Below are positions 36,780 to 59,216 of a DNA stretch of 64,000 nucleotides, one piece after another. The position numbers and the translations under genes are program-made. The stretch is from IMG/VR virus record IMGVR_UViG_3300025132_000001; one strand, given 5' to 3'. The notes beneath the pieces were generated by a model. That model had not been told where the DNA came from. It saw only the letters and a list, made by a program, of their open reading frames with translations, and did no database searches. This stretch comes from an uncultured virus (IMG/VR IMGVR_UViG_3300025132_000001). Lineage: Duplodnaviria; Heunggongvirae; Uroviricota; Caudoviricetes. Positions within the stretch are counted from its first letter, which is position 1. Every line of letters begins with the position of its first letter.

Positions 36780-36817
36780 ATATTGTGGGGGAGACTACTC
36801 TCCCACAATATTTTTTT
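36780..36817 (+). terminator. Intrinsic terminator
   Basis: ATATTGTGGG...CCCACAATAT followed by T-run. Confidence 0.85.
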
Positions 36818-36839
36818 CTAACTTTTAAAACTTATAACT

Positions 36840-37319
36840 ATGGTTCTTAGTGTTAACCAAGCAGGCACTGAAATCTCTATTACAGGAGGTGAAGCTAATG
36901 CAGCTGTCACAGTATGGCAAAATTCTTTTGGAACTCCTTTAACAGGGACTTCTGTTACATTAAGTGGCGCAGGAGCTGCCACAGTTACTGGATCTAATTT
37001 AGGTTTAGGGGCTTCTACAGTATTAAATGGAGTATGGAAATTTTTTGATACTGTTAATCCACCTGTAGGTATTTTAGTTTCAAACAGTGTTGACTGCTGT
37101 TTAGCTAAAAAAATGGACGCATATTTAACTGATTCTACATGTTCGTGTGGAAAATGTAAAAATGAGTTAGAAACAATGGCAGAAATTTATTTATTACTGC
37201 AAACAGCAAGAGCAAGTTTAAGTATGGAACCTAATCCAGAATTTGCTAATGCTTATATAAAATACGCGAAGGCGAATACTTTATGCACAGATACAACGTG
37301 CAAATCTTGTAGTTGTTAA
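36840..37319 (+). CDS. Structural protein with Cys-rich C-terminus
   Basis: DCC, CSCGKC and CKSCSC motifs. Confidence 0.6.
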   Translation: MVLSVNQAGTEISITGGEANAAVTVWQNSFGTPLTGTSVTLSGAGAATVTGSNLGLGASTVLNGVWKFFDTVNPPVGILVSNSVDCCLAKKMDAYLTDSTCSCGKCKNELETMAEIYLLLQTARASLSMEPNPEFANAYIKYAKANTLCTDTTCKSCSC

Positions 37320-37321
37320 TT

Positions 37322-39145
37322 ATGATTGGAAATGATATCTTTTTTTGGGAAAACTTAACTGAAAAGGAATTTGCTTGTCCATGTTATTTGCATGGATCAT
37401 CAGACGGCATTTATAATTGGGGCTCTTATCAATCAGAAGAGGCATCTTTTTTACAAGGAGGCTCAACTGAAGTTCTAGGTGGATGTAATATAGTAAACTC
37501 AGGTAATATATTTAATCAAGGAGGGCCGTCAGTTTTATACAATGAACCAACAGAAGAATGGTGGTTATCATTTGGGGTTGAACCTGAACCAATAGGAGGC
37601 GGTCCAAATGATTTTACAATTGGATTAGCCCCTGGCATATTAATACCTAATGGGATTACAATAACAATTGATTTAACTTTAAAAACAACTTCTTGTATTC
37701 CGCATAGATTTACTTTAAGTCTTGCACCATTAGATGCTGCGGGAACTGGAAGAGGATTTGCAAATCTTGGATCTTTAACAAGTGTACTTGCTGTAAATGA
37801 TTTTGCCACTTCTGCTATGACAGGCGTAACTGGATGTTCATCTTTAGGAGCAGGAAATTTTGCTACAAATGGGGAAGAAACAATTGTTACTGATACATTT
37901 ACAAATAGTACAGGAAGTGGCATAGTAAGATGGTTAGTTCTTAATGATCTTTCTGTAACTGGTGGATTAACCGCAAGTTCTAATGTACATATTACTAATA
38001 TCCAAGTAACTTATAGCATGTATGGAGCAGATAGTAATAATACTCCTCCTATATTTTCAGCTGACATTACAGCAAATAGTAATATAGCAAGTCCTAATGG
38101 AGCAATAGCAATTGATAATACTATCACTGATATGAATGATGCCAATTGTTGGTGGTGCTGGTCAGATAGATTTGTATTTCAAGGGACATCACCTGATAGA
38201 ACAGGATTATCTCATGGTTGGTACGCATTAAAAATGTTTAGTTTTACTGAACAAAGATCATATCCTATTCAATTAATGAATGTACCTTATTATAACGCTG
38301 CTAATATTTTAACAGGAGATGGAGATTTTAATCACTGGTATAGAGCGGGAATATATTCTAAAAAAGGAGATCAACTTCATGGAGATATTTCAAATGGAAA
38401 AAAATCAAACGCTTTAAATTTACTAGCAATAGATATTATTAAATATTTATGGGAAAAAAGTGGTGCTTTAGATGCGTGTATGACTGATGGATATATAGAT
38501 ACTTTTGAAAACTATTTAACAGAAGAATTTAATACTTGTACAGCAAGTGGTAATTTAGGATTTTTAGGTCCATATAATAGTTTTATTCCTAACCCACCTG
38601 AAATATCAGGGGATGTAGATTTAGAAGGATTTGTTCCTGGTATACCACCAATGTTTAGTGAAAGTGATTGGATAACCGATGGAGAATGGGCTGGGATGCC
38701 TGCACAAGGAATAAATGAAGCGTCACTTTGGAAAGCTGAAGGTTTAGTTTGGAACAAAGGAAGTGACGGATTTTTAAATAATAATGGAAATTGTTGTTAT
38801 GGTTATGTAGACTATCCATATCCTTCATATGTATATCATAATAAACGAATTTGGGAACCTAGATCAGAAACGTCTGATACTAGAACTCAGCCAGGATCTT
38901 TTTTAGGAGCAAGTCATTGGAAGTTAACTAAAGCTTCTTCTAAACGATCTGTAAAAAATAACTTAGAAATTTTGAAATTAAAAAGAAAAAGTAATATATT
39001 TGAACTTGAAAGAGATGGAATGCCCTCACGAGGAGCAGCACTTCTATCGTTAAACACTTATGGAGGAGACGATTCACAATATATTACTTTGGAAAATACA
39101 AAGTTATTAAAACCAGAAAAGTCTAAAAATAAATTAATTGTTTAA
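37322..39145 (+). CDS. Putative tail-associated protein with C-terminal CBM5/12-like motif
   Basis: YPYPSYVYHNKRIW...TQPG....SHWKL; ATG start at 37322 preferred over TTG 37313. Confidence 0.55.
   Translation: MIGNDIFFWENLTEKEFACPCYLHGSSDGIYNWGSYQSEEASFLQGGSTEVLGGCNIVNSGNIFNQGGPSVLYNEPTEEWWLSFGVEPEPIGGGPNDFTIGLAPGILIPNGITITIDLTLKTTSCIPHRFTLSLAPLDAAGTGRGFANLGSLTSVLAVNDFATSAMTGVTGCSSLGAGNFATNGEETIVTDTFTNSTGSGIVRWLVLNDLSVTGGLTASSNVHITNIQVTYSMYGADSNNTPPIFSADITANSNIASPNGAIAIDNTITDMNDANCWWCWSDRFVFQGTSPDRTGLSHGWYALKMFSFTEQRSYPIQLMNVPYYNAANILTGDGDFNHWYRAGIYSKKGDQLHGDISNGKKSNALNLLAIDIIKYLWEKSGALDACMTDGYIDTFENYLTEEFNTCTASGNLGFLGPYNSFIPNPPEISGDVDLEGFVPGIPPMFSESDWITDGEWAGMPAQGINEASLWKAEGLVWNKGSDGFLNNNGNCCYGYVDYPYPSYVYHNKRIWEPRSETSDTRTQPGSFLGASHWKLTKASSKRSVKNNLEILKLKRKSNIFELERDGMPSRGAALLSLNTYGGDDSQYITLENTKLLKPEKSKNKLIV
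38971..39002 (+). promoter_or_regulatory. Internal Bacteroidota-type promoter
   Basis: TTTG-N20-TATATTTG inside the 3' end of the CDS, upstream of the fibre gene. Confidence 0.6.
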
Positions 39146-39163
39146 CTTTATAAAAAATATAAA

Positions 39164-40408
39164 ATGAGAATATCTCAATTATCCACATTAGCAAAAAATA
39201 CTGTAAGTTCTACAGATTATCTTTTAACGGCTAATACATCTACAAATACTAATAAAAAAACTTTAGTACAAAATCTTTTTCCAACTATAACAAATCATGG
39301 ATCTACTGTAGGAGCGGTTTCCGTTATTAGTGCAGTAGCAAATAAAAATGAATATACTTTAAGTAAAATTAAAGTAGGAAGTGCAAAATTAGCTATTTCT
39401 GGAGGTGGTGGTGGAGCTGATATTTCTATTGATTTAGGAACAGTTAATTTTTCTGATTTAACAGGAACTGTAACAAATGCACAATTAGGAGGATCTATTG
39501 ATTTAACTAGTAAAGTAACAGGAATATTACCTATTGCTAATGGGGGTACAGGATCTTCTGGAGCAACATATTGTAGTCTTACAGCAAATGTAACAGGGAC
39601 CTTACCAGTAGCTAATGGAGGTACAGGTTTAACTTCCTATACTGCAAATAGAATAGTTTATGCTTCAGGATCTGGGACATTAGGGCAATTATCTACTGTT
39701 GGTTCTGCAGGACAATTTTTATTAGGAACTGGATCTAAACCTATATGGGCATCTCCTAGCAATACATCTTCAATATCTTGGGCTACTACTGCATCAGCAA
39801 TTGAAGCTAATGTAATAGCAATTCCTGCACTTTCAGGAAATATTGGATGGGCTGTTGGTGGTGGACGAGAAGTTAAACCAGCAAATAATGGATCAGGAGC
39901 AGGAGACGCATTGACAATTGCAGCTGGTACATCTACACATTCTAGTATTGGTGGTCAATTAAATTTAAATGCAGGTGGCGGAGGTGCAAGTACAGGTGGT
40001 GAAATAAAAATAAAATCAGGTGGAACAGCAACAGGAGCTGGTAACTGGGGAGGTACAATTACACTTCAACAACAAGGAAATAATACAGCAACTATTACAG
40101 ATGTTGTAAAAGTCTATCAAACTAAAGTTGGTATTTCTAATAATCAAGCAGCCTCTATAGTTCCTTCAGCACAATTAGAAGTAGAACAAAGTGATGGCGG
40201 ATCTGCTTTAGCAGTTTTAAAATTAGATCAAGATAATACAGCAGGTGAGTTTATTCATTTTGAAGGTCAAGACGGAGCAGCTGCTGCACATTCAATTTCA
40301 ACTTTGCATGGTACTTTTCCTAATCATACAAATGCTAACGATGGATGGATAAGAGTTAATGTTAACGGTACGGATAAATGGATACCATATTTCCATACCC
40401 CAGCATAA
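39164..40408 (+). CDS. Tail fibre protein
   Basis: RISQL N-terminus; repeated G.LP.ANGGTG; Gly-rich; ends GWIRVNVNGTDKWIPYF. Confidence 0.75.
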   Translation: MRISQLSTLAKNTVSSTDYLLTANTSTNTNKKTLVQNLFPTITNHGSTVGAVSVISAVANKNEYTLSKIKVGSAKLAISGGGGGADISIDLGTVNFSDLTGTVTNAQLGGSIDLTSKVTGILPIANGGTGSSGATYCSLTANVTGTLPVANGGTGLTSYTANRIVYASGSGTLGQLSTVGSAGQFLLGTGSKPIWASPSNTSSISWATTASAIEANVIAIPALSGNIGWAVGGGREVKPANNGSGAGDALTIAAGTSTHSSIGGQLNLNAGGGGASTGGEIKIKSGGTATGAGNWGGTITLQQQGNNTATITDVVKVYQTKVGISNNQAASIVPSAQLEVEQSDGGSALAVLKLDQDNTAGEFIHFEGQDGAAAAHSISTLHGTFPNHTNANDGWIRVNVNGTDKWIPYFHTPA

Positions 40409-40445
40409 AATTAAATAAATATTAATAAATTAAAACTATAAAAAA

Positions 40446-40853
40446 ATGCAACAAACTATAAAAACTACTAATCAAGAATTAGTAGAAATGTTACAAGGAT
40501 TGTACAATGTACAACACTTAAAAGGATTAAAATTTGCTTTAGTTGTTTCTAAAAACATTAAAGTATTAAAAGACGAGCTTTTTGATCTTGAAGAAATAGC
40601 TAAACCAACTCCAGAATTTCTAGAGTTAGCTAATCACGTAAAAGAACTAGAAGCTAATAAAGATACTAAAGCTATTAAAAAACTAGAAAAAGACAATAAA
40701 GAACTAGTTGAAGAACGTAAAAAGCAAATTGCAGAATTGCAGGAGATAATGAAAGAAACAAGAGAATTATCATTGTTTCCAATTGATGAAAAGTTATTAC
40801 CTGAAGATATGAATGCTAACCAATTGACTGGTATACAAACATTAATTAACTAA
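40446..40853 (+). CDS. Hypothetical helical protein (possible fibre chaperone)
   Basis: 135 aa, directly after the fibre gene. Confidence 0.6.
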   Translation: MQQTIKTTNQELVEMLQGLYNVQHLKGLKFALVVSKNIKVLKDELFDLEEIAKPTPEFLELANHVKELEANKDTKAIKKLEKDNKELVEERKKQIAELQEIMKETRELSLFPIDEKLLPEDMNANQLTGIQTLIN

Positions 40854-40855
40854 CA

Positions 40856-41905
40856 ATGAAAAAACTAATATTTTTCTTTATTTTATTAAGCACAATTTCA
40901 AGTGCTCAAATAGAAAATTTCTTTAAATATTCTACCTTTTATACGTCATTCAATACAAATTCATCTTTTGTAGAAAGAGATGATTATATTGCTGTAGATA
41001 AAGGATATGAAAATGTAACTGAAGTTAATCCCTATGATTACAATTTAACTATAGGGATAAGAAAAATTGCAAGATTTGACTATGAATACAAAGTTAAAAC
41101 ATGGTATTATGGTACTGAAAAAGCTGTTGCAGATAATGTTACTATTGGTAATAGCGTTGGTTGGGAGTATTTATTTAATTATTCGTTTATACGTAATCGT
41201 GGTGATAAGTTTACTGATCAAAATTATTGGATTAGATACCTTGGAAATAAATGTGTAACTAAATTTCAGTATAAAGATAACCAAAGAGTAAATTTACAAT
41301 ATACTTCTTTTGATACAAGATTTAGAATAAATTCAGGTAATTGGGATTTAACTCTTGGTGGAGTAATGCGTATTCATCCAACATATGGTGTAAATCCTAT
41401 AGAAGATTTTTGGGTGCCAGGAGAGTCAACATTTCAAGAACTAGCACAAGATTTTGGTTATGCTCCAGAACAATGGGTTCAAGGGTTTTATGTAGATCAA
41501 AATTGGTACGATGTTAGTGGTGGAGACTCGGTGTTAGTTGCTACCTCTAATGACGAGTTCTTTAACCACTATTTTGGTGATGCAGTTGCTGATTATAATG
41601 AACGAGAGCTTGAAAAATTAGGAATGCAAAAAGAACTTAGTGTAGTTTTAGGATTAGCATACTATAAATATACCCCAAAATTTTGGATTCATATGTGGGC
41701 AAATGTAATGCCTTATCATTATGGACTAGATGATTATTCTTATTCTTATAACAATGCAGTAGATATGCTTGAATGGGATGCAGGAATAGTTACAGGATTA
41801 AGAATTAATAAACATTTAGGATTATTTGTTGAAGGTACTCATATGAAGTATTGGGGCAAGGAAATTTTTGATGTTAAATTTGGGTTTAACTATTTAATAT
41901 TTTAA
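40856..41905 (+). CDS. Putative outer-membrane beta-barrel protein
   Basis: Signal peptide (...ISSA|Q); alternating aromatic/hydrophobic strands; ends KFGFNYLIF. Confidence 0.65.
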   Translation: MKKLIFFFILLSTISSAQIENFFKYSTFYTSFNTNSSFVERDDYIAVDKGYENVTEVNPYDYNLTIGIRKIARFDYEYKVKTWYYGTEKAVADNVTIGNSVGWEYLFNYSFIRNRGDKFTDQNYWIRYLGNKCVTKFQYKDNQRVNLQYTSFDTRFRINSGNWDLTLGGVMRIHPTYGVNPIEDFWVPGESTFQELAQDFGYAPEQWVQGFYVDQNWYDVSGGDSVLVATSNDEFFNHYFGDAVADYNERELEKLGMQKELSVVLGLAYYKYTPKFWIHMWANVMPYHYGLDDYSYSYNNAVDMLEWDAGIVTGLRINKHLGLFVEGTHMKYWGKEIFDVKFGFNYLIF

Positions 41906-41908
41906 AAT

Positions 41909-42682
41909 ATGAAAAGAATTATATATATACTAGTATTGTTTATAGGCTCGTTTGCTTATGGACAATTTGATTTTCAACAATTATGTTTAGATTGTGCTGA
42001 ACAAGAAGGTTATTATTGTGGAGATGATCCAGCTAACTGGACTCAATATGCTCCTAATGGATGTGTACAAACATCTTGGTTAAATGATGGATGGGAAGAT
42101 TGTGTAGATGCGGGAGATGAAAATGATGCAGTTCCAACATTACCATTAGATTGTGTACCACCTCCACCAGATTGCGATACAGTATATGTAGATATAATAG
42201 AATATATATTTGAAACAGATACAGTAGAAGTTGAAGTTCCTTTTTATATTTATGAAACAATACTTCAAATAGATACAGTATATAATACAGAATATATAAC
42301 TCAAATTTTAATAGATACAGTAGAAGTAGAAACTTTTGTTCCTGAATATATATTTGTAACTGATACAGTATACATATACGAAGATGTATTAGATACTTTA
42401 TTTGTAGATGTAATTGAATATGTAGATGTATTAGTATTTGATACAATTATAGAAATAGAATATGTAGAGTTTTTTACAACTGATACTATAATTGAATATG
42501 TAGATGTTATATATACGGAATATATTGATTGTGATACAGGGATGCCTTGTAATTCAAGTATTTCTGAAATTATAAAAACTTCTGAGTTAGATAATATAAT
42601 GTATAATTTATTAGGACAGGCAATAAAAGAACCTGAAGGAGTATATATACAAAATGGTAAAGTTAAATATAAATTACAATAA
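41909..42682 (+). CDS. Secreted protein: LDL-receptor-A-like module, DTV repeats, T9SS-like C-terminus
   Basis: Signal peptide (...FAYG|Q); CVQTSWLNDGWEDCVDAGDE; many DT(V/I/L) repeats; MYNLLGQ...GVYIQNGK. Confidence 0.6.
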   Translation: MKRIIYILVLFIGSFAYGQFDFQQLCLDCAEQEGYYCGDDPANWTQYAPNGCVQTSWLNDGWEDCVDAGDENDAVPTLPLDCVPPPPDCDTVYVDIIEYIFETDTVEVEVPFYIYETILQIDTVYNTEYITQILIDTVEVETFVPEYIFVTDTVYIYEDVLDTLFVDVIEYVDVLVFDTIIEIEYVEFFTTDTIIEYVDVIYTEYIDCDTGMPCNSSISEIIKTSELDNIMYNLLGQAIKEPEGVYIQNGKVKYKLQ

Positions 42683-42894
42683 TGAATATATTTAAAGACA
42701 CTAATGATTGGAATGAAAAAGCTATCGTAGGATTTATAGCTTTTTTAATTATGGTTGTAGTTATGATCATAGATTTAGTTACTGGAGCAGTGGGAGCTGA
42801 TTTAGTTATTAATGAATTTGTATATGATTCATTTGTATGGGTAGTATTAGGATGTTTTGGAATTAGTGGAATTGAAAAATTTGCTAAAAAATAA
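42682..42894 (+). CDS. Small two-TM membrane protein (holin-like)
   Basis: Two hydrophobic segments; ends GIEKFAKK. Confidence 0.55.
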   Translation: MNIFKDTNDWNEKAIVGFIAFLIMVVVMIIDLVTGAVGADLVINEFVYDSFVWVVLGCFGISGIEKFAKK

Positions 42895-44843
42895 TGGCTA
42901 GTAAATTTGATAAAAATTCACAACAACACCCAGGACGTTATATTGGCGTACTTAAAGAAGAGGCAGTAGTCAATACCGCAGGGAATGGATTAGACGTAAC
43001 TCAAGGGGGTGAATTTAGTTTGGATTTAAAATCAAATGGAGGATTAGTTATAGAATCTACAGAATTAGCAGTAGATCTTGCAGCTAGTAGTATTACAGGA
43101 TTATTAAATGTAGGAGATGGTGGTACTGGTCAAAGTACAGCACAAGCAGCAATAGACGCTTTAACACAAGTAAGTGGTGCAAGTGCTGGTGAAGCTTTAA
43201 TAAAAGACGGTAGTGGAAATGCAACCTGGGCTGCACAAACAAATACTACATATACAGCAGGAGATGGTTTAAATCTTTCTGGTACTACATTTAGTACAGA
43301 TATTAAAGCAAATAGCGGAATAACAATAGATAGCACAGAATTATCAATGGATCTTGGAGCTTCTAGTATTACAGGTACTTTGGCTGTAGGAGATGGTGGA
43401 ACTGGAGCTAGTAGTCTTACAAGCGATGCTATATTAACTGGAACAGGCACTAATCCTATTACAGCTGAAAGTTCTTTGACATACACAAATAGTAGCGGTA
43501 TTGGCGGTACTAGCACTCTTACAATAGGAGAAACGAATTCAGGTACAAGGAGAATTGCAACGCCACCAAAAGCAAGTAGTCAGAATGGAGACTTACTTGC
43601 TCTTAGTATTGGAAATTGTGGAGCAGGAACTAATATGAGAGGAGGTCTTATGGAATTTTATAGTGGAGGGGCTACAGGAAATATGACGGCTGGACATTAT
43701 ATGTTTTATGGAGCACCAATGAGAAATCCTGCAGGAGGATCACAAACTTCACAAGTAGTAGAGCAAATGTTTCTTTTTAGAGAGAATGCAGGAGTAGCGG
43801 ATGCTACTCATTTAAGATTATTTTCTCCTAGTGATTCTAGAAATTATTTAGATGTTATAATACAAGATCCTGGGCTAACAACAATAACAACAGTTGATAC
43901 CACTGGGCCAAGTGGAATTGGAGCAGATCTTAAACTTTTGGCAGATGGTGCACTTATATTACAATCAACAGGCGCATCTAAGGATATAACATTAGATTCA
44001 GCAGAAGACATAAAAATAGATGCTGATGGTGGTAATATAGATTTTAAAAATAATACAGCACATTTTGCTAAATTAACTAATTTACTTAATGGTAGAGGAC
44101 AGTTAGATCTTTATGGCGGATCGTGTGGTAATCAATCTTGTGGCGCGCAGATAGATTTTTATGAAGATACAGGAGCAGGTAGTAATCATATTACATTAAA
44201 AGGTGCTTGGTCAGGTGCTGGATTAGGATCAGATAAAACAATCAGTCTTCCTAATGCTACTGGTACAGTTGCTTTAACGAGTGATATACCAGGTGATATA
44301 GTGAATACAAAACAAATAATGCAATCAAGAGATGGCTATGCTTCTATTTTTGCACTTTTTTATGGATTAAAATGGTATAATGCATCAGGAGGAACACAAA
44401 GTTGGGGAGTTGGCTCAGTACCAAATCTTGATACTTATACTGCTCAACAAAAGGGGTTTGTATATACTAGAGGGCCTTTAGTAACAGCTGTATCAAATAT
44501 GAAAATTTATAAAGTGTATATGAATTTTTTTTGGTATAGTAAACAGCCAGGTGTTTGTAATAGTGCTAGAAACATGGAATTTTCATTTCATAAAGCTACA
44601 CATGCTAATAACTCTCAAGCTGAGCATACATTATCAAGTGCAATAGTAGCTACTAATTTAAATGCTGCTTATGCTTGTGATACACAATATAATTTAGTTT
44701 TTGAACTTGCTGCTGGTAGTGGTTTTACTTTAAATGCTGGTGATTCATTACATATGTTTATGAGATGTCCTTCATATAATAGCAGCACAATAATATTTGG
44801 GCAGATAGTAGGACAAATATATGTAGAATATAAATACGTTTAA
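42894..44843 (+). CDS. Tail fibre / receptor-binding protein
   Basis: Duplicated AG.GL...STEL..DL.ASSITG.L.VGDGGTG unit; LPNATGTVAL motif. Confidence 0.7.
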   Translation: MASKFDKNSQQHPGRYIGVLKEEAVVNTAGNGLDVTQGGEFSLDLKSNGGLVIESTELAVDLAASSITGLLNVGDGGTGQSTAQAAIDALTQVSGASAGEALIKDGSGNATWAAQTNTTYTAGDGLNLSGTTFSTDIKANSGITIDSTELSMDLGASSITGTLAVGDGGTGASSLTSDAILTGTGTNPITAESSLTYTNSSGIGGTSTLTIGETNSGTRRIATPPKASSQNGDLLALSIGNCGAGTNMRGGLMEFYSGGATGNMTAGHYMFYGAPMRNPAGGSQTSQVVEQMFLFRENAGVADATHLRLFSPSDSRNYLDVIIQDPGLTTITTVDTTGPSGIGADLKLLADGALILQSTGASKDITLDSAEDIKIDADGGNIDFKNNTAHFAKLTNLLNGRGQLDLYGGSCGNQSCGAQIDFYEDTGAGSNHITLKGAWSGAGLGSDKTISLPNATGTVALTSDIPGDIVNTKQIMQSRDGYASIFALFYGLKWYNASGGTQSWGVGSVPNLDTYTAQQKGFVYTRGPLVTAVSNMKIYKVYMNFFWYSKQPGVCNSARNMEFSFHKATHANNSQAEHTLSSAIVATNLNAAYACDTQYNLVFELAAGSGFTLNAGDSLHMFMRCPSYNSSTIIFGQIVGQIYVEYKYV

Positions 44844-44844
44844 T

Positions 44845-45426
44845 ATGAGTTTGACAGGTAAAAAATATGAAAAGTTCTATGAAACAACAGGAACTGGAAC
44901 TGATAAAATAACTTCAGATAATCTAACTATTGCTGAAGCAGTTTGGGATATGGATAGAGCTCTTGGTATGAAATATCATCTTGATAATTTAGAATTAGCA
45001 CCGCTTATATTTCAATTACAACAAATGCAAGATGAGTTAGATTATCTTAGATCAGAGATATCAACTAACAAAGGTAAGACTGGAATATCATCTAGTCAAG
45101 CCAGTGCTATTACAGCTAATACAGCTAAGACAGGTATAACAAATAGTCAGTCTACTATGATAACAGATAACCTGGCAGAAGCTAAAAGACTTGGTGGTCT
45201 TATTGACACTAACACTAGAAGTACAACAAACAACGCTAGTACAATATCAGCCTTAGTTGCTAATAAGTTGGAGGTTACGCCAAACTTAAACGGCAGTAAT
45301 CAACAAAGATTAACGTGTGGAGTTACGGAAAAACGTGGTGCTTATATGTTAAACTTTACATATCAAGACGTGGACAAAATTAGTGGTAAGGTACTTATAA
45401 AAACAGGATCAATACAATTAATATAA
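44845..45426 (+). CDS. Coiled-coil fibre-like protein
   Basis: QQMQDELDYLR and SQASAITANTAKTGI motifs. Confidence 0.6.
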   Translation: MSLTGKKYEKFYETTGTGTDKITSDNLTIAEAVWDMDRALGMKYHLDNLELAPLIFQLQQMQDELDYLRSEISTNKGKTGISSSQASAITANTAKTGITNSQSTMITDNLAEAKRLGGLIDTNTRSTTNNASTISALVANKLEVTPNLNGSNQQRLTCGVTEKRGAYMLNFTYQDVDKISGKVLIKTGSIQLI

Positions 45427-45427
45427 T

Positions 45428-45745
45428 ATGAAATTTAATTATATAAATATAACTAGTAGTGGAACGTCAGTGCAAATTCTTAGCCCTGCAGTAGCTAATA
45501 GTAAAAAAATTAATACTATGGAAAGGTTATTAATATGTAATAATCGTGGTGCAGATATAGGAGCAAATTTATATTTAGATAATGGTTCTGCCCAATATTC
45601 TATTTTAACTCAATGTGTAATTCCTCAAGGTACTACATTAGATGTTTTACATGGTGTACCTTTTCAATATGAAGAATCCTATGGGTTAAAATTAACTTTA
45701 ACAGATGCTGCTCATAGAGCAACTATAATATTTAATCAACAATAA
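45428..45745 (+). CDS. Small beta-rich structural protein
   Basis: 105 aa; LLICN...IPQGTTL pattern. Confidence 0.55.
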   Translation: MKFNYINITSSGTSVQILSPAVANSKKINTMERLLICNNRGADIGANLYLDNGSAQYSILTQCVIPQGTTLDVLHGVPFQYEESYGLKLTLTDAAHRATIIFNQQ

Positions 45746-45753
45746 TTAAAAAA

Positions 45754-46101
45754 ATGGCACAAAAAGAATTATCAGAAGACAGTAAATTTCAAATAAGTGT
45801 AAAAACTTTAGTAGGAATCGTAGTAGGTGTAGCTACCGTGATTTCTGCATATTTTGGGTTAATGAGTACTATAAATTCTAAATTTGTAGAACTTGAAGAT
45901 AAAGTAGAAAAAGCTTTAGAATTACCTAAACCAGGAACAGGAACCTATATGATAGATATGGGAGATCCTGCAGCTACACAAACTTGGCCACCAACTCGTA
46001 TGGAATTTAACATGAAAGATGAGATGGCACGTCAAAAAATTGATCGCGTGATCAAAGATTTAGAAGAACTACAAGAAGAAGTAAAAAATTTAAAACCTTA
46101 A
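45754..46101 (+). CDS. Single-TM coiled-coil membrane protein
   Basis: TM segment TLVGIVVGVATVISAYFGL followed by coiled coil and ELPKP. Confidence 0.65.
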   Translation: MAQKELSEDSKFQISVKTLVGIVVGVATVISAYFGLMSTINSKFVELEDKVEKALELPKPGTGTYMIDMGDPAATQTWPPTRMEFNMKDEMARQKIDRVIKDLEELQEEVKNLKP

Positions 46102-46105
46102 AACA

Positions 46106-46486
46106 ATGAAAAATTTTATAACACTTATCGCCTTTTTTATAGCAAGTTTGTGTTCTGCTCAAGGACAATCTTTTTTAGATTCAAAAGATTTTGATAAAGA
46201 GATTAGCAGAGGAATTATAGTAGTAGAATTTTGGGCGGCTTGGAATGATGCAAATGCTGTACAATGGTTACCAAATTTAAAAGAATGTGAAGTATATAGA
46301 GTAGATATAGGTACTCATATGGATATACAAACAGAATACGAAATTACATCTATACCTACGGTTATTATATTTAATAATGGTAATATAGAAGAAACTTTTA
46401 ATGCAAACATTATGTTTCAATTAGAGGCAAATAAAAAAGATGTTCAAGCAAAAGTAGATGAAATAATATTAAAACAATTTGAATAA
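46106..46486 (+). CDS. Exported thioredoxin-fold protein lacking CxxC
   Basis: Signal peptide; VVEFWAAWNDAN in place of VDFWA.WCxxC; cis-Pro motif ITSIPT. Confidence 0.8.
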   Translation: MKNFITLIAFFIASLCSAQGQSFLDSKDFDKEISRGIIVVEFWAAWNDANAVQWLPNLKECEVYRVDIGTHMDIQTEYEITSIPTVIIFNNGNIEETFNANIMFQLEANKKDVQAKVDEIILKQFE

Positions 46487-46620
46487 TGGTAAAACGATCA
46501 CTATTCTCATTTGTAGAAAAGAAGAGGAAAAAAAGACCTGGTATACATGCTAAGTCTAAAACCTCTAGACTGAAAAACAGTCGAAATTATGTTAAACTTT
46601 ATAAAGGACAAGGAAAATAA
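46486..46620 (+). CDS. Small basic protein (44 aa)
   Basis: MVKRSLFSFVEKKRKKRPGIHAKSKTSRLKNSRNYVKLYKGQGK; coupled to both neighbours. Confidence 0.65.
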   Translation: MVKRSLFSFVEKKRKKRPGIHAKSKTSRLKNSRNYVKLYKGQGK

Positions 46621-47100
46621 ATGAAATTAGAAGTAATACGATTTTCAAGTGAGGCTGATAGTACATCAGGCCTATTATTTGATGTCACAAACGAAAGAAA
46701 ATTTTTAGCTTATACATTAGAAGATGAACACAGAGATGCAAAAAATGAAAAAGTCATGCACGAAACTAGAATTCCTGCAGGCACATACAAAGTTATTCTT
46801 AGAACAATTGGTAGAATTCATAAAAACTATACTAAACGTTTTGCTGATATTCATAGGGGGACTTTGCATGTTATTAATGTTCCTAATTTTAAGTATATTC
46901 TTATTCATTGTGGTAATACTGACGAACACACGAGTGGGTGTTTACTTGTGGGGGACTCACAAACAAACAACCAAGTCAAGAAGGACGGTTTTATAGGTCA
47001 ATCAACTAATGCATATAAAAGAATATACCCACCTATTGCAGAAGCTATAGAATGTGGAGAGGAAGTAACAATTACATATGTAGATTACGACGCAATATAA
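46621..47100 (+). CDS. DUF5675-like putative endolysin (L,D-transpeptidase-like His/Cys motif)
   Basis: YTLED, TRIPAGTY, ILIHCGNTDEHTSGCLLVG. Confidence 0.75.
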   Translation: MKLEVIRFSSEADSTSGLLFDVTNERKFLAYTLEDEHRDAKNEKVMHETRIPAGTYKVILRTIGRIHKNYTKRFADIHRGTLHVINVPNFKYILIHCGNTDEHTSGCLLVGDSQTNNQVKKDGFIGQSTNAYKRIYPPIAEAIECGEEVTITYVDYDAI

Positions 47101-47101
47101 T

Positions 47102-47560
47102 ATGGGTAAAATTACTACACATACTATAACTTTAGATCAAACTGCAGGTAAAACTTCAGCTATATTGGCAAATGGAAAAGAATTTGAAATAACCCAATTA
47201 ATGATAACCTGCAGAGGATCTGGTAATTTAGATTTATTTCTGCGAAAAGAATATAATACTGCGACAAGTTCAGGAGCAACTAAAGATGCTACAGAATTTT
47301 ATTTGTATGGAAAATTACCTATAACAGCATGGTCTCCTAGTACGAGGTTATTGCCAATTACTCACATAAGTAAAGCAGGAAGTGATATAATAAAACAATC
47401 AAATCATGATCCACTTTATTTTTGTTTTTCTGTTCCTACATCTTTAATTATATCAATTGGAGGAGGAGGGTGTGTAGTAGATATTATTTATAATGTAAAA
47501 TATTATAATACTAATAAGGATAAAAATAAAAAAACTTATAACAATGAAACTAATAAATAA
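47102..47560 (+). CDS. Hypothetical protein
   Basis: 152-aa ORF. Confidence 0.6.
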   Translation: MGKITTHTITLDQTAGKTSAILANGKEFEITQLMITCRGSGNLDLFLRKEYNTATSSGATKDATEFYLYGKLPITAWSPSTRLLPITHISKAGSDIIKQSNHDPLYFCFSVPTSLIISIGGGGCVVDIIYNVKYYNTNKDKNKKTYNNETNK

Positions 47561-47936
47561 AATATTTGGTGGGGGTGCTGAAAAATTAATAGACTCTGTT
47601 GGCGGAGTTCTTGATAATTTAAGTACAACTAAAGAAGAAAAATTAGAGGCCAAAAGAAAAATGAAAGAACTTATGGCTAATTACCAAATGGAAATGGAAA
47701 AGCAAGTAAGTGCTAGGTGGGACGCTGATATGAAATCAGACTCATGGCTAAGTAAAAATGTACGTCCTATGACACTCATTTTTGTATTAGTGTGTACAAT
47801 GCTTTTAATTTTTATCGATGCTGGAGCTATCAATTTTGTGGTAGAGGATAAATGGACTGATCTTTTACAATTAACTCTAATCACAATAATTGGAGCATAT
47901 TTTGGAGGAAGGTCAGTAGAAAAACTAAGAAAATAA
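47544..47936 (+). CDS. Holin (GTA 3TM holin-like)
   Basis: RWDADMKSDSWLSKNVRP, hydrophobic segments, AYFGGRSVEK. Confidence 0.8.
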   Translation: MKLINKIFGGGAEKLIDSVGGVLDNLSTTKEEKLEAKRKMKELMANYQMEMEKQVSARWDADMKSDSWLSKNVRPMTLIFVLVCTMLLIFIDAGAINFVVEDKWTDLLQLTLITIIGAYFGGRSVEKLRK

Positions 47937-47951
47937 ACTAAATAAATAAAA

Positions 47952-49082
47952 ATGACTAAAGATCAAATTAAGGCTTTTTTGAGAGACAAGCCTGGTTACC
48001 TTAAAGAAGGAGCTGAACGTCTTTCTGAACGATTAAACTGCAGTATAGAAGCTTGTAAAAATGCTTTAAAAGAAGCAAGAATAGAAGCAAAAGGAAATGA
48101 CTTTGATTTAGATAATGTAAATACAACAGAACTTACAGGATTTAAAAAGTTTTTAAAAGAAAATGGAATTGCAGAAGAAGAAGTTAGTTCTGTAAAATTT
48201 TGGCAGAATATGAGTGGAGATAACAGGTTTTCTGTTGTAGTAAAAGGTGAGGACAATGTAATGAAAGAAACAAAAACTCAAATTATTGAGTTACTTGAAT
48301 CTTTTAGTCCTAAAGTTGAAAAAGAATATAAACCTGTAGAAGACCCTGTTGTATATGAAGTTTCATTACCTGATATACATTATGGAAAAATTGATGGGCA
48401 GACTTTAGATGAAGCAGAAGATTTGTACATGGATACTATAAAAGATCTAATGAATAAAGCTTCAGGACTAAATATAGAAAGGATTTTGTTACCAATAGGA
48501 AACGATGGTATGAATTCTGAAGGATATTCTAGAGCTACAACTAAAGGCACTCCTCAACAAGACTCTGCCCCATGGCAAGAAACTTTTGTTGGGTATTGCA
48601 ATTTAATTGTAAGAGCCGTTTCATTTTTAGCTTTAAGAGCACCAGTAGATGTGGTTGTTATACAAGGTAATCATGATTATGAAAGAATGTTTTATGCAGG
48701 TGAATTTTTAAGAGCATTCTTTTTAAATGACGAAAGAGTATTAGTAGATAATAATTATGACGCTAGAAAGTATTATGAATATGGAACTAATATGATTATG
48801 TTTACTCATGGAGACAAAGAAAAACCTGCAGAAATGCCACTTATAATGGCAACTGAAGAACCAGAAATGTTTGCAAGAACAAAGCATAGAGAGGTTCATT
48901 GTGGGCATCTACATAAAGAGATGATTAACGAATATAGAGGAATTAAAGTAAGATTTATTCCTTCTATATGTGGAAACGATGAATGGCATAAAATGAAAGG
49001 CTATGAAGCTAAAAGAACGGGTCAAGCTCATATATGGAATAAACAACGTGGATACGAAGGTTATCTACAAACAAATATATAA
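47952..49082 (+). CDS. Calcineurin-like metallophosphoesterase
   Basis: DIHYG, GND, GNHD, THGD and GHLH motifs. Confidence 0.85.
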   Translation: MTKDQIKAFLRDKPGYLKEGAERLSERLNCSIEACKNALKEARIEAKGNDFDLDNVNTTELTGFKKFLKENGIAEEEVSSVKFWQNMSGDNRFSVVVKGEDNVMKETKTQIIELLESFSPKVEKEYKPVEDPVVYEVSLPDIHYGKIDGQTLDEAEDLYMDTIKDLMNKASGLNIERILLPIGNDGMNSEGYSRATTKGTPQQDSAPWQETFVGYCNLIVRAVSFLALRAPVDVVVIQGNHDYERMFYAGEFLRAFFLNDERVLVDNNYDARKYYEYGTNMIMFTHGDKEKPAEMPLIMATEEPEMFARTKHREVHCGHLHKEMINEYRGIKVRFIPSICGNDEWHKMKGYEAKRTGQAHIWNKQRGYEGYLQTNI

Positions 49083-49084
49083 TT

Positions 49085-49780
49085 ATGACTTTAAATGAAA
49101 TTGCATATAATATTTTAAATCTTGTGAGAGCAGGACGATCAAATAATGATGATTCTATATCTTTAGAACAAATTAAATTCAATATTTTACATTATAGAGC
49201 TATGTTTATACGTAGAGATTTTGCTCGTAATGGTAAAATTACTAGGCATTTAGAACAAGACTTAAAATGTTTACCTTTAACAACTGTAGACACAAATAAA
49301 TGTTGTAGTGGATTTAATATGGGATGTAATATTAGCAAAACTATAATGCCTATACCCAAAACAGTTAGATTTAATTTTAAAGAAGCAATTACATTTGTGG
49401 GGTTACCTGATGGTATGGAAAGAATACAATTAATTGAGCCTTATATGGCTAAATTATCCTCTTATGCAAAATATACAGGATCAAATAGAAAAGCGTTTAT
49501 GATTGAAGATTTTATGTATATTTTAAATGCAGAGGGAATGACAAATATTAATGTTAGGGGGGTATTTGAAGATCCGAGAGATTTGGCAATTTTTGATTGT
49601 GATGGTCAGGATTGTTATAATGATAATTCAGAATTTCCTTTACCTATGGATATGATACAATTAATTACAACAGGTATGGCCCAAGGAGAATTACAATTAT
49701 TAGCGGGAAGTTTTAATGATTCATTAGGAGATAGATCTCAAGATAAACCAACAGCTCCACCAACTAAACAAGAAGCATAA
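49085..49780 (+). CDS. Putative tail ring protein
   Basis: MTLNEI.Y, RGVFEDP and FPLP..M motifs; tail operon context. Confidence 0.6.
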   Translation: MTLNEIAYNILNLVRAGRSNNDDSISLEQIKFNILHYRAMFIRRDFARNGKITRHLEQDLKCLPLTTVDTNKCCSGFNMGCNISKTIMPIPKTVRFNFKEAITFVGLPDGMERIQLIEPYMAKLSSYAKYTGSNRKAFMIEDFMYILNAEGMTNINVRGVFEDPRDLAIFDCDGQDCYNDNSEFPLPMDMIQLITTGMAQGELQLLAGSFNDSLGDRSQDKPTAPPTKQEA

Positions 49781-50262
49781 TGTATAATATTACAGACATA
49801 TATGAATATTTTGATCTTACTTCAGAATTAGAAATAAGTAAATTATTATTTAAAGATATATGCAGTGAGTTTAACATTATGGTTATAGATTATATATTAG
49901 AGGGCGGAAAATTTAATATGGGCAATAATTTGTCGTATATTAGCATACTGCGAATTGAAAGAAATAATTCAAAACCCGCAATTGACTGGGGAGAAAGTAA
50001 TAAATACAAAAGAGAATTATTAACAGAGGGCAAATCTTTATATAACGCAGAGACAGGAAAAGGTGAAAAATGGCATATCTATTATACAGATTCTGAATAT
50101 TGTAGATATTATTGGAATAAATCAGGATGTAAAATTTCAAATAAATCTGTATATAAATTTATTCCTACAAGAGGATTAAAAGGTAATAAAGAAAAATTAA
50201 CGGCTTTGCTAAAGAATGATGATTTAGCATATTTAAAATTTAAAAAGCATGGCAATATATAA
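49780..50262 (+). CDS. IHF/HU-like protein of the tail module
   Basis: ILEGGKFNM...L..I.I; IDWGES; precedes tail tubular gene as in crAss-like phages. Confidence 0.6.
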   Translation: MYNITDIYEYFDLTSELEISKLLFKDICSEFNIMVIDYILEGGKFNMGNNLSYISILRIERNNSKPAIDWGESNKYKRELLTEGKSLYNAETGKGEKWHIYYTDSEYCRYYWNKSGCKISNKSVYKFIPTRGLKGNKEKLTALLKNDDLAYLKFKKHGNI

Positions 50263-57056: not shown

Positions 57057-59216
57057 ATGGCACAAGCACCTTTTCAAGAAAGAGACCCTGATATTCTCGA
57101 CGGCGTAAAATCTTATACCGTAAAAAAGGGGGACAATTTAACTAGATACGCATCTAGGAATAATACTACTATTGAGGAACTTATGAAACTTAATCCTCAT
57201 ATAAAAAATAAAGATAAAATATATATTGGAGATCAAATTATTCTTCCAGGTAAATGGAATGATGATGGTTCTGAATTTGTAGATACTAATGAGATTGAAA
57301 CAGATATAGTAAATGCAACTGAAATTACTGATAATCAAAACAATAATACTAACGAAGTACGAGAAGAAATTATTACTAATTTAAATAACAGACAAGATAT
57401 TCCAGTATCTGATACTCAAGCAAATTTTAATGCTTTAAAAGCAGATAAAAAATTAATCAGAAGACAAGGTCTTAAAAATACATTAGAATTTTTTGATCCT
57501 ACTAATACGCATGATGAGAGAATGCAAAACATTGCAACTAGACATGATACTAAAATGGCTAGAATTCAGAATAGATGGGCTAGAAGAGCTGCTAGACAAC
57601 AAATGCGTAAAGAAAGAAAAGATCTTAGAGGTAATAGTATTATCAAAGATCTTCGTTCAATGAATCCTAGACGATTAGAGCGTTTAGATGCTCAAAATGA
57701 AAGAAAGCATGAGAAGTTTGGAGAAAATGCTTTTGAAGGAAATTGGGCAGATTTATCTTTTGCAGAAAAACAAAAGATAAGAAAAGACCAAAGACAAGTA
57801 AATAGATTATATAGAGACGCTGAAAGAGAAGAAAGAGAAAGTACAAGAGGCCCTGGAAATATATTTGGAGGCGCCACTGGTGATGGTTTTGCACGATTAT
57901 CACAAACGAGAGAAGATAATAGAAATCTACGAAAGTCAAATAGAGATGCTAAAATGAGAGAAAAGTATAATATAGATGGAGTAGATTGGGAAGGAAATTG
58001 GGGAGATTTATCTAGACAAGAGAAGAGAAATATAAAAAGTGATTATAAACTTTTTAGTCAAATGGATGCAGATATTGCAAAATATGATGAAGAAGATAGA
58101 CAAAAAGCGTTACTGCTACAACAAGAAAATGATTTAAATAATGTTCTTCAATCACCATCAATGCAACAAGGATTAAAACAAGGAGGAATGTTAAATTATG
58201 GTTATGGAGGTAAAATGATGAATTATAATTATGGCGGTCCTTTAAAGTATGCAAGTTATGGAACTAATGAGTTACCTGATGCTTGGAAACCTTCAAGTCA
58301 AATTGCATACAATCAAGGAGTACAAGAAGTTATGGATGCTTCAAATCAAAGTGCTATGAATACTTCACAAGTAGTTAATCAAAAGTTAATGGAGGTAGAG
58401 GATGCTAATACATCTCCTGGAGTAGCTTCTGAAATAGCACAAAATGTTACAAGTATAGCAGAACAATATCCAAATTTTGCAAATAAATTAAGTACACCAT
58501 TTTCAAATTTAAAAAATTATGGTACTTTTAAAAGTCCTGATAATCCATTTTTTCAACAAAGTAAAATGCCTAGATGGTTAGCTAAAGATCTAGCACAAAA
58601 TACAACAAGTAATGCTGGTGCTAATATAGCAAGTAACATGGGTACTGAGAATTTAATTATGGGTTCAGAAGGTATGGCAGATCCATTACTTTCACAAATG
58701 GCAGCTGAAGGAAGACATGTATTACCTGAAGTTGTTTTAAATGAAGGGGCAAATATAGCTGCTGACGCAGGAACAAGTGTAGCTGGAGATGTTGCCACTG
58801 AAGGAGCAAAAGCAGGAGTTAATCCTACAGTTCCTTGGTCACTAGTTGGAAATTTAGCAGGAAAGGGTATTACTGCTTTGTCTGATGATCAAAATCCTAC
58901 AACAATGAATTTTGGTGAGACTGCAGGTACTGTAGTAAGTGGTGCTTCTACTGGAGCAGGGATTGGTAGCATGCTTCTGCCTGGAATAGGAACAATTGCT
59001 GGAGGTCTTATAGGAGGACTTTGGAGTGGATTAAGAGGTAAAAAGAAAAGAGATGATGCTAGAGACGAATACCAAGAAGTTTACGATGAGTATGTACAAC
59101 CAATGATGGCTAATCAAGGAGCTTTAAATAAAATGTCTAAAACTTATTGGGGAACAGATACAGGTAGAAGACTAGTTAGAAAAGGTGGAACTTTAAATCG
59201 TAAGTTATATGCATAA
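57057..59216 (+). CDS. LysM-containing putative ejected protein with glycine-zipper segment
   Basis: YTVKKGDNL...ELMKLNP...IYIGDQIILP (LysM); GAGIGSMLLPGIGTIAGGLIGGL. Confidence 0.75.
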   Translation: MAQAPFQERDPDILDGVKSYTVKKGDNLTRYASRNNTTIEELMKLNPHIKNKDKIYIGDQIILPGKWNDDGSEFVDTNEIETDIVNATEITDNQNNNTNEVREEIITNLNNRQDIPVSDTQANFNALKADKKLIRRQGLKNTLEFFDPTNTHDERMQNIATRHDTKMARIQNRWARRAARQQMRKERKDLRGNSIIKDLRSMNPRRLERLDAQNERKHEKFGENAFEGNWADLSFAEKQKIRKDQRQVNRLYRDAEREERESTRGPGNIFGGATGDGFARLSQTREDNRNLRKSNRDAKMREKYNIDGVDWEGNWGDLSRQEKRNIKSDYKLFSQMDADIAKYDEEDRQKALLLQQENDLNNVLQSPSMQQGLKQGGMLNYGYGGKMMNYNYGGPLKYASYGTNELPDAWKPSSQIAYNQGVQEVMDASNQSAMNTSQVVNQKLMEVEDANTSPGVASEIAQNVTSIAEQYPNFANKLSTPFSNLKNYGTFKSPDNPFFQQSKMPRWLAKDLAQNTTSNAGANIASNMGTENLIMGSEGMADPLLSQMAAEGRHVLPEVVLNEGANIAADAGTSVAGDVATEGAKAGVNPTVPWSLVGNLAGKGITALSDDQNPTTMNFGETAGTVVSGASTGAGIGSMLLPGIGTIAGGLIGGLWSGLRGKKKRDDARDEYQEVYDEYVQPMMANQGALNKMSKTYWGTDTGRRLVRKGGTLNRKLYA

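Follow-up and report, generated by a model that had tools for sequence, protein, structure and literature searches.

We tentatively propose that five genes in the genome of an uncultured marine crAss-like phage (IMG/VR record IMGVR_UViG_3300025132_000001) constitute a lipoprotein-free, mobile and phage-only envelope module, which is carried by crAss-like and other phages of marine Bacteroidota and acts at lysis. The stretch analysed, hereafter the window, is 64 kb long and was read in all six frames; the evidence is computational throughout. The five proteins are a predicted outer-membrane beta-barrel (BARREL), a secreted protein with DTV-type repeats (the DTV protein, or cargo), two small proteins with transmembrane (TM) helices (TM70 and TM115) and a protein of the thioredoxin fold (TRX). 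The module matches no characterised system and may be a hitherto undescribed means by which the host's outer membrane is opened or remodelled. Its genes are located in the window as follows (arrows mark signal-peptide cleavage sites).

40856–41905, plus strand: BARREL, 349 aa, leader MKKLIFFFILLSTISSA↓Q (ISSA↓Q), predicted 12-stranded outer-membrane beta-barrel
41909–42682, plus strand: DTV protein, 257 aa, leader FAYG↓Q, LDLa-like head followed by stalk and tail
42682–42894, plus strand: TM70, 70 aa, two hydrophobic segments predicted from hydropathy to be TM helices
45754–46101, plus strand: TM115, 115 aa, one TM helix at approximately residues 17–40
46106–46486, plus strand: TRX, 126 aa, leader LCSA↓Q, thioredoxin fold

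An earlier reading of this DNA, made from the sequence alone, had singled out three genes coding for signal peptides followed by Gln, and the same three genes were recovered here. When all ATG-started open reading frames (ORFs) of at least 60 aa in six frames were scanned with a pattern for the n-h-c build of a signal peptide and an ensuing small-x-small↓Q site, exactly three ORFs of the 64-kb window were picked, those of BARREL, the DTV protein and TRX. For comparison, 80 of 110 related viral loci were kept (the window was added to them for ORF clustering), and a second set comprised 31 loci of a distant clade, in which the barrel is ∼41% identical to that of the window. Inspection by eye of the first 80 loci revealed a K/R-hydrophobic-small↓Q leader in all 78 barrel, all 77 DTV and all 72 TRX homologues; the leader sequences themselves drift freely, while this pattern and the Gln are kept. 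A stricter pattern retained 54 of 78, 75 of 77 and 72 of 72 leaders, respectively, and also matched 32 of 969 other ORFs of at least 100 aa; the leaders that it missed have Pro in the h-region (e.g., LLPLLSFG↓Q). Since the three proteins are Sec-exported, the possibility that they are virion components was rejected.

Gln following the cleavage site is described, in the available portions of two reports, as a Bacteroidetes-specific rule for substrates of signal peptidase I (PMC5837995, PMC10653852). The large terminase of the window is ∼41% identical to those of gut crAss-like phages and also matches those of Bacteroides, Flavobacterium and Cellulophaga phages (159 records). Taken together, the Q-rule leaders and the terminase relatives place the host in Bacteroidota.

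A few leaders deviate from the common form. In ten BARREL variants (L009–L019) the leader reads LLISC-ATPKKCCA↓Q, and in eleven TRX variants (L005, L014, L020, L034, L044, L053–L057) IFAC or FGC precedes the SPI↓Q site, so some lineages may lipidate BARREL or TRX. That either protein is a lipoprotein was rejected, the lipobox-like Cys being confined to these variants and not family-wide. A further Q-rule secreted family of 126–145 aa with a weak DUF5674 match (L028:17833–18270, minus strand, and ∼14 other loci) is encoded, in one group of relatives, close to the holin and to a resolvase-like gene, with no counterpart in the window.

The product of the first gene had been described as beta-barrel-like. 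An AlphaFold2 (AF2) model built from 48 homologues (pLDDT 71.6, pTM 0.68) has twelve long hairpin-linked strands and a conserved helical insert of ∼80 aa (residues 175–257), and the protein ends in the beta-signal GFNYLIF, the final Phe of which is present in at least 90% of the 48 sequences. The top matches of the model in the unfiltered structural search (VIA) were 12-stranded outer-membrane barrels, EstA (Z 13.3), KdgM (12.8) and NanC (12.5), with NalP (11.9), Tsx (11.5), LpxR (10.9), OMPLA (10.3) and FapF (10.2) among the further ones. The best Foldseek matches were likewise outer-membrane barrels, and the closest ESM look-alikes were clusters of outer-membrane proteins (0.93–0.94). BARREL thus appears to combine a Sec leader, an even number of strands closing a barrel and an aromatic C-terminal beta-signal, in agreement with the earlier description; the barrel fold itself comes from a model of middling confidence. 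Following Sec export, the protein would presumably be inserted by the host beta-barrel assembly (BAM) machinery. A conserved basic turn on the periplasmic side (residues 69–101), modelled with low confidence, is a predicted docking site.

The barrel family, which comprises 239 clusters at 50% identity, matched no Pfam, PHROG, NCBIfam or PDB sequence family when searched with BARREL, and scans of 26 of its members against Pfam yielded no consistent family. The PorP/SprF model PF11751 had no match in those scans nor in four viral records, and for a barrel of the P0009 type no relative was found among viral contigs. BARREL and the DTV protein had no tblastn match in GenBank phages, TRX had just two weak thioredoxin matches there, and a cellular homologue of the barrel was not detected at the sensitivity of a single-protein scan of genome contigs. 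Lipid-cleaving barrels (LpxR, OMPLA) do occur among the fold matches; an enzyme of the OMPLA/LpxR/PagL kind was considered and dropped, the candidate His not being invariant in distant relatives.

The thioredoxin fold previously suggested for TRX was substantiated by PF00085 (E 1.9e-8; 34.7 bits against a cut-off of 23.5) and by 192 thioredoxin or protein disulphide isomerase (PDI) matches in the PDB. Residues W46, N47, N50 and P84 are invariant in 37 sequences (alignment A2); the cis-Pro is among them, and profile alignments to PDB entries place WNkaN over WCGPC, so that WNxxN stands for the catalytic WCxxC. Because both catalytic Cys are replaced by invariant Asn, TRX is, judging from these alignments, redox-dead and not expected to work as a thiol oxidoreductase. 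Fused forms of TRX were not encountered in our search, which is weak evidence.

The two small membrane proteins expected at 42682 and 45754 are indeed encoded there, as a 2-TM and a 1-TM protein. At its N-terminus TM115 has the invariant peptide KELSEDSKF, followed by a single TM helix, a Pro-rich linker (shortened in 93-aa variants), a conserved TRMEFxMKD motif and a C-terminal amphipathic helix. It matches phrog_20984 (E 6e-8), as do 18 of 27 family members, and 11 of the 27 give weak matches to phrog_739, an Rz-like spanin family (best E 0.011). A full-length member of phrog_20984 is found in the T7-like pelagiphage Jormungand between a holin-like gene and that for the large terminase subunit (TerL), which is the position of gene 18.5 in T7. 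Profile comparison with hhalign gave probabilities of 37% for the pelagiphage protein and, over a coiled-coil stretch only, of 83% for a gut crAss protein. In architecture, though in architecture only, TM115 resembles an i-spanin: an N-terminal TM helix and two helical segments separated by a Pro/Gly linker, encoded in a holin/endolysin cluster. No ORF is embedded in its gene.

TM70 is invariant at 35 of 70 positions, including Asp31 within the first TM helix (alignment A6), and searches of PHROG and Pfam with a limit of E 0.01 gave no family for it. Its size and two TM helices fit a class II holin or pinholin; it is holin-like by architecture only. The gene is present in 39 of 81 loci; in others its slot is held by another 2-TM protein (f48), which weakly matches the holin family phrog_9987 (E 0.0017).

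The DTV protein consists of three parts. The head (residues 20–84) is rich in Cys and carries an LDLa-like calcium cage (alignment A4), the stalk (residues 85–215) is acidic, with 25% Asp and Glu, no Lys or Arg and eight D-T-[VIL] sequons, and the tail comprises the conserved C-terminal 41 aa. In the AF2 model pLDDT is ∼75 for head and tail and ∼22 for the stalk, which is thus predicted to be disordered; the model had no significant Foldseek match. The sequon density is 3.11 per 100 aa, compared with 0.32 on average for the proteins of the window, an approximately tenfold difference based on eight sites, and members of the family have a median of seven sequons (range 1–12). The motif D-(S/T)-(A/L/V/I/M/T) is the O-glycosylation motif of Bacteroidota and, in the accessible portion of the source, is stated to be nearly fully occupied in non-cytoplasmic proteins (PMC12871550). 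An exported protein with such sites has the features of a Bacteroidota O-glycoprotein, and given the motif, its density and the reported occupancy, the DT repeats are best read as an array of O-glycosylation sequons and the stalk as a putative mucin-like glycosylated linker. The stalk ranges among relatives from absent to ∼200 aa and so is not a fixed periplasmic ruler. That it strips lipopolysaccharide by chelating divalent cations was rejected by inference, since seawater Mg2+ and Ca2+ would saturate it. The sequence-only reading had called this a secreted LDLa/DTV-repeat protein. Its export stands, the repeats are reread as sequons, and the head is no more than LDLa-like: PF00057 scored 17.3 bits, under the cut-off of 24.1, and the Cys of the LDLa 'CDG' is Asn or Ala in the DTV family. 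The head profile did, nevertheless, give 26 PDB matches, most of them to LDLa modules (E 0.009–0.9), over the cage NDGWEDCVDxSDE.

The tail is characteristic of the module. A pattern derived from it matched 70 of 77 DTV proteins and none of 1571 other ORFs in the first 80 loci. In the 31 loci of the distant clade it matched 20 of 521 ORFs, all 20 directly 3′ of TRX, and none of the other 501. It is therefore confined to module cargo, on two unrelated heads, across 111 loci. The 'short' C-terminal domain (CTD) of type IX secretion system (T9SS) substrates is, as far as the available text of Ye et al. 2025 describes it, 40–51 aa long, goes together with a signal peptide at the N-terminus and consists of motif B (Tyr, an invariant Gly and a basic residue), a gap of 1–6 aa, motif D (GxY followed by Ile) and a basic motif E (PMC11969387). 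In the DTV tail, Y232, G236 and I239 with K/R are followed after 3–4 aa by G-x-Y246-I247 and then K-x-K (alignment A4), and the motifs and spacings fit the short CTD as compared with this verbal description rather than with the authors' hidden Markov model (HMM). With E allowed up to 10, neither the whole DTV protein nor its last 60 aa was matched by the models TIGR04183 and PF18962, and with E up to 1 four module-bearing viral records gave no match either; these negatives are weak, because the control genomes also gave no above-cut-off match. We do not class the DTV protein as T9SS cargo; it may act like one, or its tail may dock to the module's own barrel.

The genes occur together. ORF clustering of the 80 loci and the window recovered BARREL 81, DTV 78, TRX 73, TM115 72 and TM70 39 times. 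In 57 loci the sequence downstream of the barrel is at least 4 kb long. The DTV protein and TRX are present in all 57 of these and TM115 in 53; the four apparent misses are artefacts of antisense-ORF picking, and three of them were recovered by tblastn. The genes had been expected to recur together in other phages, and they do so over very different backbones. TM115 is directly followed by TRX in 68 of 68 loci (64 within 10 nt, four overlapping by 32 nt), and BARREL is directly followed by the DTV gene in 58 of 77. The usual order, BARREL-DTV-(2TM)-TM115-TRX, spans ∼2.5 kb and is contiguous in most relatives. The pairwise-distance matrices of four families correlate with r of 0.62–0.79, highest for TM115 and TRX (66 loci), which counts as consistency only, because shared ancestry alone can produce it.

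The earlier assignment of the whole of 40856–46486 to one cassette holds for the five genes and fails for the genes that interrupt them in the window:

42894–45745, plus strand: insert outside the module, a tail-fibre-like 649-aa gene with 193-aa and 105-aa genes

This trio splits the module between TM70 and TM115 in window-like loci only and is located elsewhere in other relatives; the fibre genes are a lineage-specific insert.

In the distant clade the order is (TM70)-BARREL-TM115-TRX-secreted protein-M15 endolysin-holin. TM115 comes right after the barrel and TRX is present in all 25 loci with sufficient flanks, whereas the DTV HMM matches in none of the 25. Instead, a different secreted protein of 169–196 aa, without a Pfam family, is encoded directly 3′ of TRX in 20 of 26 loci. 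This alternative cargo (L096:8971–9480 and 19 other loci of L088–L118) has a conserved DSYGDGWNGAYL domain and the same tail as the DTV protein. Since the distant clade keeps BARREL, TM115 and TRX and swaps the cargo, these three proteins are the conserved core, and the fourth member is a replaceable secreted protein with variable head and constant tail. The cargo family numbers at least 1,608 clusters at 90% identity.

The module is kept across changes of genomic background. In eight loci with TerL in the flank, this protein is 22–36% identical to that of the window and the barrel 65–77%, so the module has either been exchanged among distant lineages or is constrained far more than hallmark genes. 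At least four different neighbourhoods are found upstream of it. Small, very basic proteins starting with MAFKM(K/S)GF (f77, f110 and f111; e.g., L007:11268–12095, L010:7460–7780, L045:12383–12598) are repeatedly inserted between module genes in relatives. A small SNase-like nuclease gene, which in the window lies upstream of the terminase (20727–21101; PF00565, 5.9e-11; phrog_452), is situated in 18 related loci within the module, in the gap between the DTV protein and TM70, or just after TRX, and may be linked to module mobility.

Downstream of TRX the window encodes the following.

46486–46620, plus strand: g44, 44-aa highly basic peptide
46621–47100, plus strand: DUF5675 protein, candidate endolysin (PF18925, E 1.2e-25)
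47544–47936, plus strand: holin, 130 aa (phrog_3427, E 2.9e-28)

The gene 3′ of TRX varies between loci, coding for an M15 peptidase (f14), the f30 protein or, as in the window, a DUF5675 protein. The M15 type matches Pfam (1.7e-12) and endolysin family phrog_894 (1e-27), and the f30 type matches endolysin family phrog_33083 (2.8e-13). Of 57 loci, 52 have an endolysin-type gene and 36 the holin at a distance of no more than 5 kb; in the distant clade an M15 endolysin and/or a holin stands beside BARREL-TM115-TRX in 23 of 31. DUF5675 is described in the part of a preprint open to us as a C82-like peptidase and lysin candidate (bioRxiv 10.64898/2026.04.11.717860), and homologues of the window protein are annotated as 'putative transpeptidase' or 'L,D-carboxypeptidase/transpeptidase'; it had no PDB sequence match and is a candidate endolysin of the C82/L,D-transpeptidase-like kind. 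The holin scores 24.3 bits with Pfam GTA_holin_3TM, slightly below the cut-off of 24.8, and its tblastn matches include annotated holins beside endolysins in Vibrio and Nonlabens phages. The peptide g44 has 15 Lys/Arg, and homologues are encoded in four loci beside DUF5675 or BARREL; it may act as a cationic peptide of the disruptin kind or bind nucleic acids. In the gut crAss phage cr111_1 an unrelated basic ORF of 65 aa follows DUF5675 (L087:5431–5628).

The absence of a lipoprotein o-spanin, noted earlier for the window, is corroborated by a lipobox scan which recovered six of six controls (f69) and picked in the window only one spurious antisense ORF of 29 aa. Nothing credible was found by the same scan in a 100%-complete 87.9-kb relative of the same layout (G001). 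The gene following TM115 is not an o-spanin either: TRX has a leader of the SPI↓Q type, and the Cys found in some variants is not conserved. A Pro-rich lipoprotein of 53–63 aa (LxxGC↓S), with an o-spanin-like build, does lie between BARREL and the DTV gene in six of 80 loci (L029:2432–2623, L001, L026, L030–L032) and is absent from the window.

In the window (∼31% G+C) the replication genes form a block on the minus strand, and a long block on the plus strand codes for the terminase, portal and major head protein, for very large virion proteins and tail fibres, and for lysis proteins. A strong intrinsic-terminator-like hairpin (14 pairs and a T run) at 36780–36811 lies 3′ of a gene ending at 36766, and the terminator scan found no comparable plus-strand site from 36811 to 50000, a pattern compatible with a single long late transcript of fibre, module and lysis genes. 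A sigma-70 promoter scan found fewer sites than in shuffled sequences and was uninformative. Two large late proteins, of 1772 aa (25777–31095; M15 peptidase and lysozyme-like stretches) and 719 aa (57057–59216; LysM and transglycosylase-like matches), are probably ejected or virion-borne wall-degrading proteins, separate from the lysis cassette. A 926-aa protein (1053–3833, minus strand) matches the RIIA lysis-inhibitor family phrog_612 (E 6.6e-17) and has a GHKL ATPase domain (PF13589). No near-DNA match to the window was found among 50,697 GenBank phage records, and the reads-run listing for the window contains five marine DNA metagenome runs and no RNA run.

From the predicted locations, folds, conservation, synteny and lysis context we infer that the parts of the module bind one another and act on the outer membrane. 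They would link the inner membrane, periplasm and outer membrane, with TM115 as an inner-membrane anchor having a coiled-coil or amphipathic periplasmic part, TRX as a periplasmic adaptor or chaperone, BARREL as an outer-membrane anchor instead of a lipoprotein, and the tail of the cargo as a docking element; a small 2-TM protein would often be added. At or after holin triggering, such a module would breach or loosen the outer membrane, as Rz/Rz1 spanins or disruptin do elsewhere. The trans-envelope complex suggested by the sequence-only reading is borne out as far as the predicted inner-membrane, periplasmic and outer-membrane locations go, and as regards the tie to a lysis cassette without a recognisable lipoprotein spanin. 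Of the three functions that had been considered for it, outer-membrane lysis, superinfection exclusion and surface remodelling, the lysis context tentatively favours the first. The more specific proposal, that spanins are replaced by a new outer-membrane-opening machine, made up of the barrel anchor, the TRX adaptor, TM115 and the tail-docked glycosylated cargo and moving together with endolysin and holin among unrelated phage lineages, we consider rather unlikely.

Several observations weigh against an action at lysis. None of the module proteins has a homologue among proven lysis proteins, the links of TM115 being weak, and it is not obvious how a beta-barrel would drive membrane fusion of the spanin type. 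Conservation is above that usual for lysis proteins (barrel 63–82% identity; TM70 median 81%). The most conserved part of TM115 is a short N-terminal peptide, probably cytoplasmic, unlike in i-spanins; a weak charge bias suggests this N-in topology. The cargo looks surface-built, with O-glycosylation sequons, a tail like short T9SS signals and a stalk that can be missing altogether. In five of 57 loci and in L054 the TM115-TRX pair, its order kept, lies ∼8 kb away on the opposite strand. Finally, the position among late and lysis genes may reflect timing only.

The strongest competitor, which we regard as somewhat unlikely, is that BARREL, alone or with the host T9SS, exports the glycosylated cargo and attaches it to the infected cell or to debris of that cell. 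With its calcium-cage head and its acidic, mucin-like stalk, the cargo would then act as a generic shield that prevents superinfection or keeps progeny from being lost through re-adsorption, TM115 serving as an inner-membrane tether and TRX as a periplasmic chaperone for cargo export. The tenfold enrichment of sequons in the cargo, the fit of its 41-aa tail to the short CTD as described, the retention of this tail on two unrelated heads and nowhere else, and the location of BARREL immediately 5′ of the cargo gene in 58 of 77 loci all speak for such display. The module is, moreover, kept whatever tail fibres the phage has, as a receptor-independent shield would be. Phage-encoded precedents are on record both for Q-rule proteins, in Porphyromonas phages (PMC10367356), and for T9SS cargo, in a cryoconite phage (PMC7468147), as far as the accessible parts of these reports go. 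However, exclusion genes are usually early and not placed amid endolysin and holin genes, the cargo, which is swapped in the distant clade while BARREL-TM115-TRX stay, is less constant than any other member, and display leaves the need for an inner-membrane coiled-coil protein unexplained. The lack of matches to TIGR04183, PF18962 and PF11751 also counts against it, weakly, since the control genomes gave no positive.

Control of lysis timing appears improbable. TM70, TM115 and TRX would here serve as an antiholin or holin regulator combined with an envelope sensor, in the manner of T4 RI/RIII or of a pinholin and its antiholin, and BARREL would give the sensor access to the outside. The class-II-holin-like size of TM70, its two TM helices and invariant Asp, and the weak holin match of the f48 analogue would fit this, as would the invariant N-terminal peptide of TM115, which suggests a partner on the same side of the membrane. 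The window also encodes the RIIA-like protein, and in the gut crAss phage cr111_1 'lysis regulatory' proteins with TM and coiled-coil segments adjoin DUF5675. Yet TM70 is present in fewer than half of the loci, homology to known antiholins was not found in Pfam or PHROG, and neither an outer-membrane barrel nor a secreted glycoprotein is obviously required for timing. That BARREL is a phage porin which, with periplasmic binding partners, serves late uptake of nutrients or ions is very improbable: the structural matches do include the substrate-specific 12-stranded channels KdgM, NanC and Tsx, and phage-encoded porins and outer-membrane proteins in BFVD weakly match the model (E 1e-4 to 1e-2), but BARREL sits in a lysis cassette and not with metabolic genes, its partners belong to no transporter or binding-protein families, and its long conserved loop may plug the barrel.

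To our knowledge, spanins and one disruptin are the only cases in which the way phages get through the outer membrane at lysis is understood. Bacteroidota phages, including the crAss-like ones, are among the least understood in this respect. Approximately 15% of phages of Gram-negative hosts have no spanin gene, according to the part of the source at hand (bioRxiv 10.1101/515445). In the literature on crAss-like lysis, phage outer-membrane proteins and barrels, spanins, disruptin and phage T9SS cargo we found no description of the module. It is nonetheless abundant, as the 239 barrel clusters and at least 1,608 cargo clusters attest; the listed members of both families are all metagenomic, marine where a habitat is stated, annotated as 'hypothetical protein' at best and without a Pfam family. 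Should the module open the outer membrane, it would embody a new principle of lysis and could serve to lyse Flavobacteriia, fish pathogens included. If it displays a glycoprotein, it would be a new phage-driven surface conversion using the Q-rule, O-glycosylation and possibly T9SS. Either way, the five-gene set recurring over unrelated phage backbones offers a testable handle.

Among known systems, two-component spanins (lambda Rz/Rz1, T7 gp18.5/18.7) share with the module a place in the lysis cassette beside holin and endolysin, a small bitopic inner-membrane protein with predicted periplasmic helices split by a Pro/Gly linker, a next gene that overlaps the stop of the first, and a set offering both inner- and outer-membrane anchors. 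They differ in that the outer-membrane member of the module is a predicted 12-stranded barrel and not a lipoprotein, in the additional TRX and tail-bearing cargo, in the far higher conservation of the module and in the only weak sharing of PHROG families; membrane fusion is also not its obvious outcome. Disruptin (phiKT gp28) is, in the accessible text of its description, likewise a non-spanin solution to the outer-membrane problem in a spanin-less phage (bioRxiv 10.1101/515445). It is, as described there, a single small cationic peptide, whereas the module is multi-protein, and g44 is the nearer look-alike in the window.

Like TRX, the PDI b/b′ domains have a thioredoxin fold without the catalytic Cys pair, and the retention of the cis-Pro loop without both Cys would suggest, by analogy, a binding or chaperone role. 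Unlike in these domains, both Cys positions of TRX are invariant Asn, and TRX is a stand-alone periplasmic phage protein. In TonB/Tol systems an inner-membrane anchor extends a Pro-rich linker towards an outer-membrane barrel, which the Pro-rich linker of TM115 and a small TM partner with an invariant intramembrane Asp (D31 of TM70) call to mind; however, no homology to TonB, ExbB/D or TolQ/R/A was found in the libraries searched, and energy coupling would be pure speculation.

The adjoining genes of BARREL and cargo recall the cargo/PorP-SprF barrel pairs of Flavobacterium (SprB/SprF). Like T9SS cargo with a short CTD, as far as the available description reaches (PMC11969387), the module cargo has a Sec leader and a tail of ∼41 aa with matching motifs and spacings, to which an adjacent outer-membrane barrel gene, the Q-rule and O-glycosylation sequons may be added. 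It differs from such cargo in that TIGR04183, PF18962 and PF11751 give no match in the module, the barrel, for which no cellular homologue was found, is phage-only and the tail is found on module cargo alone. Lastly, Sec-exported outer-membrane barrels encoded among tail-fibre and late genes are known from other phages, such as lambda Lom and the porins and outer-membrane proteins of BFVD. Proteins of the Lom type are 8-stranded lysogenic-conversion factors which act alone, whereas BARREL has a predicted 12 strands, is encoded by phages that have replication genes of their own and is always linked to TM115, TRX and lysis genes.

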